Assembly: GCA_035084275.1 (NCBI GenBank)
Contig: CM068748.1
Location: 16,058,001 to 16,122,000 of the forward strand
DNA: 64,000 bases
Direction of reading: 5' to 3'
DNA from: Hydrolagus colliei
Taxonomy: Eukaryota
The notes below the pieces were generated by a model that was given only the letters and a program-made list of their open reading frames with translations, had not been told where the DNA came from and did no database searches. Both the position numbers and the translations under genes were made by a program. Shown piece by piece: positions 9,960-63,055 of this stretch. Position 1 is the first letter of the stretch. The number at the start of each line of letters is the position of its first letter.

Positions 9960-10772
9960 ATAATAATCATAATAATATTGTTTACATTTGATAAAGCGCC
10001 TTATCGCATCTTCAAGACGTCTCAAAGCGTTTGACAAAATATATTGTCAAGTGAATTGACTATATTTTGTGGGCAAAACACGACAGCCAATTATGCACAG
10101 CAGTGTCGCACAAACAGTCGTGGATTGAATGACCTATTTATATAATAATACTTGTATTTGATGTAGCACTTTTCACATCTTATCAACGTCTCAAAGCGCT
10201 TCACAGAATATACTGTAAAGTGAATTGACTGTATATTTGTGGGTGTTACGTATATAACATATATATTTTTTAAGGAATTATTAGCCCAGAAAGACTAAAA
10301 CCCAGATGTTTGTAACTCTTGAGTAGTACTGTGCAACTGTAATCCACATACTGTACCTTCAAGGAGTTAATACCCATATGCGATTGATTCCCCTTCCATC
10401 TGTTGCTTTGTTGTACACCAAGAAGCGGTTTATCTCGTGCTTTACTTTGACGGATCCTGATGTTGCCAATGCTTAAAAAAACATAAAACATACATTCGGA
10501 AGAGCTCCAGCAAAGGATCAGAACTGATAGACCTCTGAAAGTAGAGCTGTCATCTTTCAAGTTGATTTAAAAAAAGGACAGGACTGTAACTGCTCCTATT
10601 CCAAAGTACTGTCCAAACATTTAAGGGATTATTAACCCCCAGAAAATGATCCACCAATACCTTCTGCTAGGTAACAGTGTAGATTAAGAAAGTTTGCCCA
10701 AGGTTTCGCCCCGCTGGGAATTAAACCCTCTCGCTTGCAAGGCAAGTGCTCTAATCGTGAGCTACAGGACTC
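9960..10772 (-). mobile_element. tRNA-derived SINE: two tandem 3'-tail copies (about 9960-10250), with the head at about 10670-10772
   Basis: Repeated gacgtctcaaagcg...gtgaattgact...gtggg blocks; the head reads GAGTCCTGTAGCTCA on the minus strand. Confidence 0.7.
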
Positions 10773-30661: not shown

Positions 30662-30980
30662 ATAACATAATAATAATCCTTGCATTTGATATAGTGTTTT
30701 TCATGTTTTCTAGACGTCTCAAAGCGCTTCACAGAATATAATGTAAAGTTAATTGACTGTATATTTATGGGCGAAACGCGGCAGCCAATTGCGCACAGTA
30801 GTGTCCCACAAACAGTCGAGGATTGAAACGACCAATTTATTATAGTTTTTTTTGGACAGATTATTATTTGGCATGTGGAGTAAGGAAACTTGCCCAAGGT
30901 TTCACCCTGACCTGCCTGGATTTGAAACACAGGTCTGACGCTTGTAAGGCGAGTGCTCTAACCACTGAGCTACATGACTC
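30662..30980 (-). mobile_element. Near full-length tRNA-derived SINE
   Basis: Head GAGTCATGTAGCTCAGTGGTTAGAGCAC, TTGGGCAAGTTTCC core and (TTA)n tail. Confidence 0.8.
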
Positions 30981-36921: not shown

Positions 36922-37125
<204 letters not shown>

Positions 37126-42200: not shown

Positions 42201-42469
42201 AAGTTGCCTCGCTGGCAAACTCGATTGCAAACTTGAAAATACTTTAAAGTGTTTATCATCAATTTCAAAGTGATATGCTGAAGTTTTTTCTTTCAACTTG
42301 TAAAAATGACTTCTTGTTACTGTGCTTCATTTGAATAATCTGGCTCTTCTTCCTTGTCAAGCCTGCTAACGTTACTAAGGCCTATGTTAGTTCCCTTGTT
42401 GATTCCTTCCAACTGCCAGACTAAATAACCTTGCCATTAACCTGCTCCTCTTCCTCTCCTTCCATCGAA

Positions 42470-42480
42470 AACATGATTAT
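42470..42480 (+). promoter_or_regulatory. CaRRE1-like splicing element (AACATGATTAT) between the polypyrimidine tract and the AG of STREX
   Basis: 10/11 match to the CaMKIV-responsive consensus CACATNRTTAT, at the same position as in mammalian STREX. Confidence 0.65.
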
Positions 42481-42482
42481 AG

Positions 42483-49619: not shown

Positions 49620-50042
49620 TTTGTTAAATTGCCTTCCCAATTCCTCCCTCCATAGGCTGCAGATCATCCAGAACTTTGCAGCCCATGTCCTCCACCATTC
49701 CAAGCTCCACAACACCAAGTCCCTCATTCTCGCCCGTCTCCATTGGCTCCCCATCATCCAGAGGATTCAATTCCAGATCCTGGTCCTCACCTTCAAAGCT
49801 CTCCACGGCTTCGCCAAGACCCCCCTCCCCTCACCTTTGTGACCTCCTAACCCCCCACCAATCTGTCCACTCCCTCCGCTCAGTGGGCTGTGGCCTGCTC
49901 CATGTCCCTGACCCACCATCAGCGGGCAAGCCACTCTGCCCCATACCTCCGAAATTCCATCCCGCAATCCCTTTGCCTTGGGACGTCCTCCCGACATGAA
50001 AGGCACTATACAAATGTAATTTTGTTGTTGTTGTTGTTGTTT
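49620..50042 (+). mobile_element. L2 fragment (ORF2 end, 3' UTR, (TTG)n tail)
   Basis: LHRLQIIQNFAA...LARLHWLPIIQRIQFQILVLTFKALHGFA; tail ttgttgttgttg. Confidence 0.88.
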
Positions 50043-58950: not shown

Positions 58951-59547
58951 AGATGGTGGGACTCACAGAAGAAATATTTTTATATTCAATGTTTTTTTAT
59001 TTTTGCTGGAATCCAATTGGCCAAATTTATTTGATTGATTTATGCCTTAATGATTGATACCGATGACGGAAACTAGTCATTTGCACTATGATACACTATT
59101 GTGCAAATGGTTAAAAAAAAGTGTAATGATAGTCACAGGAGAAGGTGATGGAGATAATGAGTGTGTGACATTAGACGGTAAGTATTCATGCACACTGGGT
59201 CTGGCGGTGCTGATGCTATCCAGATTGTGAACTGTAACAGCAAGTAAATAGAGGCCTGGCACACCGTACGCTTGTTCTTCCATTCTCCAACTTGTCATCG
59301 CGTTACCCCACCTCAAAGGTTACAACTGAGATCAGACCTGGGTATTGATTCATCTTGCTGACGTTTGGCATTCTATGTTTTCCACATCTGTTTTGCACTG
59401 ACAATTTAACTGCAATGGGTATTTTTTTTTCTGTTGTTACAGAAATGAAACAAAAATGCCCATTTTTGCCAACAATAACATTGTGAAAATGCAAATGCCT
59501 CGTTGTGCTTTGTTTCTTAATGTGTCCACTTTTTTTTTACTTGGCAG

Positions 59548-59835
59548 TAAAGGATGAAGCTGAACCAGGTTTGCTAAATGACTCACTTAAAGCCCGCTCC
59601 ACCAAGTCCCACACATTGTCAAATGCTGTACCTATTACAGAAGGCCCTGAAGCCGTGCGGCTTGTTAATAACCGTAAAGGAAGCCTCTACTTGTCCAGTG
59701 ACTCTTCACTCAGGCGCCTAAGTCTGCTGAATACAAGTGATCAAGGAAGAGGTGCCCAGTGTAGGTTACAGCGTGCACGCAGCTTGCCTGTGAAATACAG
59801 ATACCACTCCAACAACACTACATGCGACGATCTCT
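59548..59835 (+). CDS. KCNMA1: Alternative 288-nt (96-codon) linker exon: (L)KDEAEPGLLNDSLKARSTKSHTLSNAVPITEGPEAVRLVNNRKGSLYLSSDSSLRRLSLLNTSDQGRGAQCRLQRARSLPVKYRYHSNNTTCDDL(F)
   Basis: ttttttttacttggcag|TAAAGG...GATCTCT|gtaggt; stop-free in the required phase-1 frame; length divisible by 3; TGCATG at 59881. Confidence 0.78.
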
Positions 59836-60349
59836 GTAGGTTTCCCCTCGACTGCACTTGTCAGCCAGTGCAGATACATATGCATGAAATTCTAGCTTTG
59901 GGTGTTTTTATTTTGTTCCCCCCCAAAACCCAAATCTGCCAAGTGATGATAAGACAGTGGGGCCCTCCAGATGTGATCCTTTTCTGATCTGGTGTGAACT
60001 CAACCTCTGCTCAATAGCAACCTAGACATGGGGGAGATGGGGAGTTGGGGATTGGGGGGATAAGCAGTTGGAAGAAGGGGGAGTTATGATCTTACATAAA
60101 TAAATCAAATTTCCTGGTTAGTCCAAAAAAATCTTCATTATAAGAACTGCTATTTTCTGAGTTTATTCCCATGTAAACTTCATTGTGTTTTGAAGTTTAA
60201 GTGAGCTTTGGAAAATAGTTGCGTTACAATCGCTGCAGTTTTGTTGTGTTGATGTAACATATTGTTGAGCAAAAATTTCAGGATCCCCCAAAAAACAGAA
60301 GCAAAGTTATATCATATCTAATCTAATTCGTCACTAATGATTGTCGACC

Positions 60350-61870: not shown

Positions 61871-62955
61871 GCACTTTGAGATGTCCTTCCATCTTGCAAG
61901 GTTCTAAATCGAATGCAAGGATCATTGTTATTTTATCATTATTGATCCCAAAAGCCCTTTATTTGAAGGACTCAGGAAATATTTTATCCCTTCAATAAAT
62001 TCATGAATGCAGTCTGACTTTTCATGAATTTTTCTGAACCATGTCGTAAGCAAGGTTTCGGCTGAATTTAACAAGATATCCAAATCTCTTATTCAGTAAA
62101 TGTAAACCTTGAACTGAATGACAGATGAGATATACAGAGACAATGTGGTGTGGATTTAAAATCTTTGGAGTGTTAAAATGTGGCTAATGTAGACAACTTG
62201 AATTAATAGTGTCTTCTTAATGGATTAAATCCTTGGGTTACACTTTGCCTGGCTTTTTAACGGGCAACTCCACTGTCATTCTTTGAAAGGCTGGAGATTA
62301 CACTTGGTAGGATTTTCTCACACACTTGTTTGTTTTGCTCAATCCTGCAAATTCCTTCATAGTTCCTGTAGTCACTGCTGGTTTAACATTGAAGGCTGTG
62401 AGCCGGAAACAGCGCGTTAATGCTGCACGCTCTAGAGTGACACCTTCTTTAACCCGAGTGGTTTGATTTCTACTTAAAAAGAATTGTTGTCGTATTTTAG
62501 ATATTTAACCTGTACAAAGTCTTCAATTTTGTTATTTACGCTTTCTGAATGGGGCAGTTGGTTCCTTCACCCTCAGCCACCCAAATTAAAACTGTGTGCC
62601 TTCCCTGTGAGTCCTGTTTTGATAAACATTGTTTTCAACTTTCTTTTAATTGATATCATGTGTGTGTATGTGTGTGTTTAGTGTTTAGCAATATTGAGTG
62701 CTAGATTACCTTAGTCACGCCTTTAGGATTTTGAACTGGTTTGTTTTTGATTAATACGTTAGACCGTACTTAGTCCTCATTTGATTTGATTTTCTTTTCC
62801 CCGAGTAACCCGTTCATTGCTATATAGTGGAGATCTTTAACTTTCATAATGAGTCACTTTCTGTTTAAATATGCATTTAAAAAAAAAAAAAAAATTCCAT
62901 TTCGGGCATACTTCTGAAAATGGCTCCTAAACTCACATCTTCCGTATGTTTGCAG

Positions 62956-63055
62956 TTGCGGTTGAAGATCAACGTCCATCAACACTGTCACCCAAAAAAA
63001 AGCAGCGCAACGGAGGCATGCGAAATTCACCCAACAGTTCACCCAAATTGATGAG
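62956..63055 (+). CDS. KCNMA1: KCNMA1 exon, 100 nt: (L)[32 protein letters not shown](R)
   Basis: tatgtttgcag|TTGCGG...TGATGAG|gtaaga. Confidence 0.95.

Follow-up and report, generated by a model that had tools for sequence, protein, structure and literature searches.

Splice site C2 of the BK channel is a textbook example of how splicing can change regulation by kinases. In Xenopus, Kukuljan et al. are said to have described in 2003 a variant, xSlo99, with a 99-residue insert at one splice site. In the accessible part of PMC3989361, inhibition by PKA is taken as a sign of channels that contain the STREX insert, and the 29-residue mammalian insert that we discuss below is the known +29 C2 variant (e22 in Table 1 of that paper). 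The available sections of PMC3393747 list this form as '+29 aa, hbr5', with its occurrence in rat skeletal muscle, and use the name e22 for another form. Furthermore, 14-3-3 dimers often bind two tandem sites in disordered regions, where they act as coincidence detectors (PMC2860806, available part), and 14-3-3gamma lowers the expression and activity of BK according to the passages available of a 2026 review (PMC13694676).

Here we analyse a long cassette exon at site C2. Our open-access searches returned no description of it; the key subscription papers lie outside this scope, and absence from print is not implied. The accessible portions of PMC1562363, PMC2803478, PMC10995336 and 10.1101/274449 likewise contain no account of it. 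The exon is largely annotated already, in automated gene models, and the novelty lies in the dissection of its motifs and in its history, not in a new system.

The window, that is, the whole stretch of 64,000 nucleotides that was analysed, carries ten constitutive KCNMA1 (BK/Slo1) exons on the forward strand between positions 1908 and 63055, which were located by exon translation, PDB search and tblastn with named proteins. Joined in silico, these exons form one open frame of 323 codons that is 88-96% identical to named BK proteins spanning the full length. The exons of the RCK1 region are found in order, as in BK alpha subunits, and a PDB search with the exon translations returned BK matches (E 1e-16). 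Splice site C2 (SS2) corresponds to the intron from 37121 to 62955, which lies within the RCK1-RCK2 linker directly past the CKACH heme motif; the preceding exon ends at 37120 in phase 1 with the junction C/GTAAGT. This intron contains four cassettes: IYF, STREX, a 33-nt exon and the 96-codon exon (Table 1).

Table 1. Features of the C2 region in the window; a slash in a sequence marks the exon-intron junction.
Feature	Position	Strand	Details	Basis or status
Upstream constitutive exon	37044..37120	+	CKACH heme motif; ends CGCKR	
IYF micro-exon, site C2	39274..39282	+	9 nt	pattern scan
STREX exon, site C2	42483..42656	+	174 nt	PDB match E 1e-24
33-nt exon, site C2	53796..53828	+	33 nt	homology match E 0.015
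Acceptor of the long exon	59518..59547	+	candidate branch point TTAAT, T tract, CAG	sequence
Long KCNMA1 cassette exon, site C2	59548..59835	+	288 nt, phase 1/1, +96 residues	named KCNMA1 homologues
First 29 codons, variable	59548..59634	+	likely counterpart of mammalian e22	homology via newt, chicken and tarpon; directly weak
Block 1, LVNNRKGSL	59661..59687	+	PKA-type serine codon 59682-59684	112-117/117 per column
Weak in-frame internal GT, C/GTAAAG	59674..59679	+	if used, 42-codon form without either serine	candidate donor
RRLS	59712..59723	+	dibasic only in the window species	1/105 distinct cores
Block 2, L-x-R-A-x-S-L-P-V-K-Y-R-Y	59766..59804	+	serine codon 59781-59783	mode I 14-3-3 pattern, Leu at −5
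Donor of the long exon, GTAGGT	59836..59841	+		position used in homologues
TGCATG, RBFOX-type element	59881..59886	+	46 nt past the donor	lead only
Downstream constitutive exon	62956..63055	+	starts in phase 1	

Several further observations concern the neighbourhood of the long exon. Sturgeon and teleost models have homologues of the 33-nt exon, often placed directly before the long exon, and none was found among the bird or mammal proteins examined. The downstream exon starts two codons early at a tandem acceptor (62950-62964), where the usual second AG is GG; this adds Ala-Val, and a grouper model has the same two extra residues. The STREX acceptor (42458-42482) has a purine-rich tract in place of a pyrimidine tract, which presumably recalls the calcium-responsive element described for STREX. 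At site C1 (30074-36161), a strict 12-nt scan found no SRKR micro-exon, and the junction reads ESS, not ESR. Other C2 inserts, of 27 residues in teleosts and 51 residues in a snowfinch (models of the P0208/P0197/P0084 group), have no match in the window intron. Elsewhere, Rfam gave two weak tRNA-like matches of 30-33 bits on the reverse strand (30907-30979 and 10706-10771), probably SINE heads, and an open frame at 49656-49880 resembles what we take to be the tail of a LINE-2 reverse transcriptase.

A preliminary description of this DNA had proposed a stop-free, phase 1 alternative exon in the linker, and its boundaries proved exact, with a T-rich CAG acceptor and a T/GTAGGT donor. The exon lies between the exon ending in CGCKR and the EDE/EDQ exon; it is in phase 1 on both sides, its length is divisible by three, it contains no stop and it has AG and GT ends. 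When the flanking exons are spliced in silico, the frame is open with or without the 96 codons. At the acceptor, a beaver read-through model (P0201) has the same L-A-V-K signature. At the donor position, spliced and unspliced versions part in four of five pairs (pufferfish, darter, chicken and gar); in the fifth pair, from a mormyrid, the divergence point is ambiguous. Database models with and without the long exon exist for birds and teleosts. As for chance openness, 92 of the 8511 windows of 96 codons in the same frame of the intron are open, and by arithmetic 71 of these belong to the long exon's own frame of 166 codons.

Homologues were collected by several searches. The long-protein search gave 179 matches from 333 candidates (the best 120 of the 179 were examined), short proteins searched with a profile yielded 76, and 36 came from scanning 1.84 billion representatives in full. 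Since the exon set already contained 33 of these 36 and the other three read as the same exon, we rejected the idea of a module in unrelated proteins. Among the matches listed, those with a name are KCNMA1 models, and the unnamed gene models share their Pfam domains. The insert occurs at the same site in sturgeon, gar, teleosts, newt and many birds. Thus the preliminary description was right to call the exon ancient, and the similar teleost sequence that it mentioned exists, as teleost KCNMA1 models carry the same block. Among named proteins, both blocks were found in 92 of 101 from birds, 13 of 33 from teleosts, 4 of 4 from gar, 1 of 1 from sturgeon and 1 of 1 from newt. None of 11 mammal, 4 frog and 3 squamate proteins has both; these zeros say little, as all of the frog and squamate proteins and most of those from mammals represent other isoforms or are fragmentary. 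No named protein of a shark, bichir, coelacanth or lungfish is among the exon matches. Since the exon is present in ray-finned fishes and tetrapods, it was probably already present in their common ancestor. In the exon tree the teleost sequences form two clades, and thus both teleost gene copies appear to have kept the exon.

In the same tree the window exon has a long branch (0.81) and is placed, without firm support, between tetrapods and sturgeon/gar. Such a branch, together with a donor (TCT/GTAGGT) that is not optimal, might be expected of a relic that is no longer spliced in the window species. We regard a relic as very improbable, as the frame is intact, both splice sites are at homologous positions, both blocks are unchanged and a near-identical copy (P0002, 98%) differs only outside the blocks.

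The sequence TGCATG past the donor is presumably an RBFOX-type element. Within 150 nt, TGCATG is found at three of the four cassettes and at none of the ten constitutive exons (Fisher's test, post hoc: p 0.011 for either side, 0.066 for downstream only), which hints at RBFOX-type control of the cassettes in neurons or muscle. Separately, the read-through proteins P0101, P0123 and P0125 and their relatives represent three frames of a conserved intron element 3' of the exon in one teleost gene copy. Taken together, these protein frames imply a TGCATG and an ACTAA motif, the first of which matches the TGCATG at 59881. Donor-like dipeptides in the read-through frames (70 of 72) were given no weight, as they come without a control.

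To describe conservation, we profile-aligned the 194 matches of three exon searches without any motif filter, which resulted in 117 distinct rows; as these are mostly percomorph fishes and birds and were selected by homology, the conservation is inflated. The columns that are at least 95% conserved form two islands, LVNNRKGSL and L-x-R-x-x-S-L-P-x-K-Y-R, and the remainder is variable; in the first 36 columns none reaches 85%. The core of block 2 is kept in 110-115 of 115-116 rows per column (L 112/116, R 113/116, S 115/116, P 115/116, K 115/115 and Y 114/115). Within it, positions −5, −3, 0 and +2 are fixed, with one change of Ser to Thr, and position −1 is free (R, C, L or H); in tetrapods the sequence is RALSLP. 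From serine to serine, the spacer between the blocks measures 22-56 residues (33 in the window) and is always in frame among the 105 distinct cores. In eight further cores one block only was matched, some of them being truncated and some diverged.

These observations bear on whether the blocks matter as protein or as RNA. The exon might mainly be a spacer of length or charge in the linker, or the blocks might be kept as RNA splicing signals. In the window species the Arg codon of RKGS does hold the in-frame C/GTAAAG, so that block 1 overlaps a GT, and internal donors are used in mammals and in a hawk model, where a similar donor gives a form of 26 residues. We nevertheless consider such a role unlikely. 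Both blocks stay in one frame despite a spacer of such variable length, and the changes are conservative at the protein level, which indicates selection on the protein.

The consensus for PKA is R-R/K-x-S, and the preliminary description saw RKGS (59673-59684), RRLS and RARSLP (59772-59789) in an exon rich in basophilic motifs. All three translate as claimed, and the first and last are strongly conserved among the 117 distinct homologues: the PKA pattern R-[RK]-x-S at RKGS and the mode I pattern R-x-x-S/T-x-P are each present in 102 of 105 distinct cores. The richness holds for these two sites only. RRLS is specific to the window species, with Leu in 88 of 108 sequences at the corresponding column 55, and the idea that it is a conserved site for PKA was rejected. 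When the peptide was shuffled 20,000 times, at least two R-[RK]-x-S/T arose in 3.2% of the shuffles, one R-x-x-S/T-x-P in 8.0% and the two together in 0.4%. Because the motifs were picked after the fact, this evidence is modest and suggestive only, and conservation is the real evidence. In the available part of PMC2860806, several CaMK-group kinases favour Leu at −5; thus the 14-3-3-type serine, with Leu at −5 and Arg at −3, fits CaMK-group kinases better than PKA.

The conserved blocks could also be docking motifs for another partner, such as a scaffold, a trafficking adaptor or the gating ring, so that the kinase look would be incidental or would only modulate binding. The conserved stretches of 9 and 13 residues, with V-N-N and K-Y-R-Y among them, extend further than the 14-3-3 consensus and would suit docking, as would the hydrophobic L-x-L-x-L patch between the blocks. 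On the other hand, the fixed Leu at −5, Arg at −3, Ser/Thr at 0 and Pro at +2, with a free −1, closely match the basophilic 14-3-3 pattern, and we judge docking to be possible but doubtful.

A Pfam search of the insert found no domain, and a PDB search up to an E value of 10 found no relative. AlphaFold, run on an alignment of 9 sequences, gave a pLDDT of 57 and a pTM of 0.11, with no secondary-structure elements. Given no Pfam domain, no PDB relative and a fold of low confidence, we rejected a folded domain or known family. We infer from the model that the insert may be a disordered loop that projects from the gating ring.

The reading that we favour over docking, a spacer or RNA role and a relic is a conserved BK cassette at the STREX site that adds 96 residues and whose two motifs would form a two-kinase phospho-switch recruiting 14-3-3; judged from the sequence, its chances of being right or wrong are about equal. 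PKA or PKG would phosphorylate the serine of RKG-S in block 1, and a CaMK-group kinase (of the CaMKII, PKD, MARK or AMPK type) that of L-x-R-x-x-S-L-P in block 2. The second site would serve as the anchor of a 14-3-3 dimer, which would also grip either the first site, at a distance of 33 residues, or the same site of an adjacent subunit. Surface delivery or gating would then be altered only in channels that include the exon, and inclusion would likely be biased to neurons or muscle. Some points speak against the switch. Fixed positions reach as far as +7 in block 2 (VKYRY) and begin at −7 in block 1, which is wider than recognition by kinases or 14-3-3 needs; block 1 has no Pro at +2; and the reported effect of 14-3-3gamma concerns mammalian channels, which by our reading would lack the blocks.

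We turn to the mammals, where the preliminary description thought the exon possibly lost. A search of shorter proteins with the chicken region gave 74 matches from 168 candidates, including 11 named mammal proteins, none from a monotreme or marsupial. Three of the 11 (two beaver models and one partial chimpanzee model) contain the 29-residue C2 exon, and the chimpanzee model reads through past the donor of this insert. We compared these sequences with 3000 shuffles each. For the 29 chimpanzee codons, the number of shuffles that scored as well was 0 against newt, 0 against chicken, 333 against gar, 1329 against tarpon and 2630 against the window; for the beaver insert it was 0 against newt and 12 against chicken, with no other match. 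The chimpanzee read-through part alone gave 22 against tarpon, 24 against chicken, 126 against gar (weak), 415 against newt and 2624 against the window, and its match is to the residues that lead up to the NN of block 1 and to the NN itself. When the two parts are joined, 41 residues align gap-free with chicken, newt and tarpon (0/3000 each). Past the NN, RKGS is gone and the chimpanzee frame then ends.

Compared directly with the window exon, the mammalian exon has no significant alignment (2630 and 2781 of 3000 shuffles as good). A gapless alignment that starts at the acceptor gives a weak match, with identity at 6 of 41 positions; 41 of 5000 shuffles did as well, with three registers tried, and NN falls at the same codons. 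A donor after codon 29 is absent from the window exon, in which there is no in-frame GT between exon lengths of 21 and 126 nt. In mammals the exon was likely shortened through an internal donor after codon 29, with the loss of both blocks, and e22 is likely the cut-down remnant of the first third of the long exon. We thus rejected a complete loss in favour of truncation, given the 29-residue insert and the decayed chimpanzee trace up to NN: the motif blocks are gone, as had been suspected, and the first third is likely kept. Furthermore, we infer from one read-through protein that the ancestral exon may have had a short and a long form, of which mammals kept the short one.

Combining both parts, the BK linker of ancestral bony vertebrates may have contained a coincidence switch that was selected by splicing, set by two kinases and read by 14-3-3; fishes, amphibians and birds would keep it, and mammals would have lost it when the internal donor after codon 29 became the used one; e22 would be the stump, and the motif part would have decayed into the intron as a readable fossil. 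We put this forward tentatively and think it somewhat more probably wrong than right. If it is true, 14-3-3 acts on the BK channels of chicken and fish through a direct and optional input that is absent in mammals, the orphan 29-residue exon of mammals gains an evolutionary origin, and BK has an extra regulatory input in the non-mammalian hair cells and neurons used for studies of electrical tuning. A specialisation for electroreceptors found no support: in the available part of 10.1101/274449, the assembled skate sequence is without the STREX-site region and the ampulla clones are without STREX.

Lastly, we compare the long exon to known systems. The class IIa HDACs have tandem 14-3-3 sites, where two basophilic serines, both conserved, lie in a disordered region and one of them has Leu at −5, Arg at −3 and Pro at +2 (PMC2860806, available part); the putative sites of the long exon are known from sequence and differ in being optional by splicing and in sitting on a tetrameric channel. 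STREX is a cassette at the same site of the RCK1-RCK2 linker and alters kinase regulation, as we propose for the long exon. However, its 58 residues are of unrelated, cysteine-rich sequence, a character that the long exon does not have, and it is a separate exon in the window. The Xenopus xSlo99 insert, which we take to be probably the same exon, is similar in length, its reported 99 residues being close to the 98 added in newt and birds. Because of this reported variant, the word 'uncharacterised' in the preliminary description is doubtful. The mammalian +29 C2/SS2 exon shares the site and the acceptor signature, and its sequence aligns with the first third of the long exon of newt and chicken (0/3000), but it stops after 29 codons and has neither block; a link between the two is plausible. 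Closest are the predicted KCNMA1 isoforms of chicken and other birds, newt, gar, sturgeon and teleosts (NCBI/UniRef), which have the same site, splice positions and two blocks and are, among the matches listed, 38-53% identical to the window exon; they carry no functional annotation on the insert, and the window exon differs from them in its own first third and the extra dibasic RRLS. We conclude that the long exon is real and ancient, that it represents a long version, outside mammals, of a BK splice cassette already known, and that its two motifs are credible as regulatory sites.
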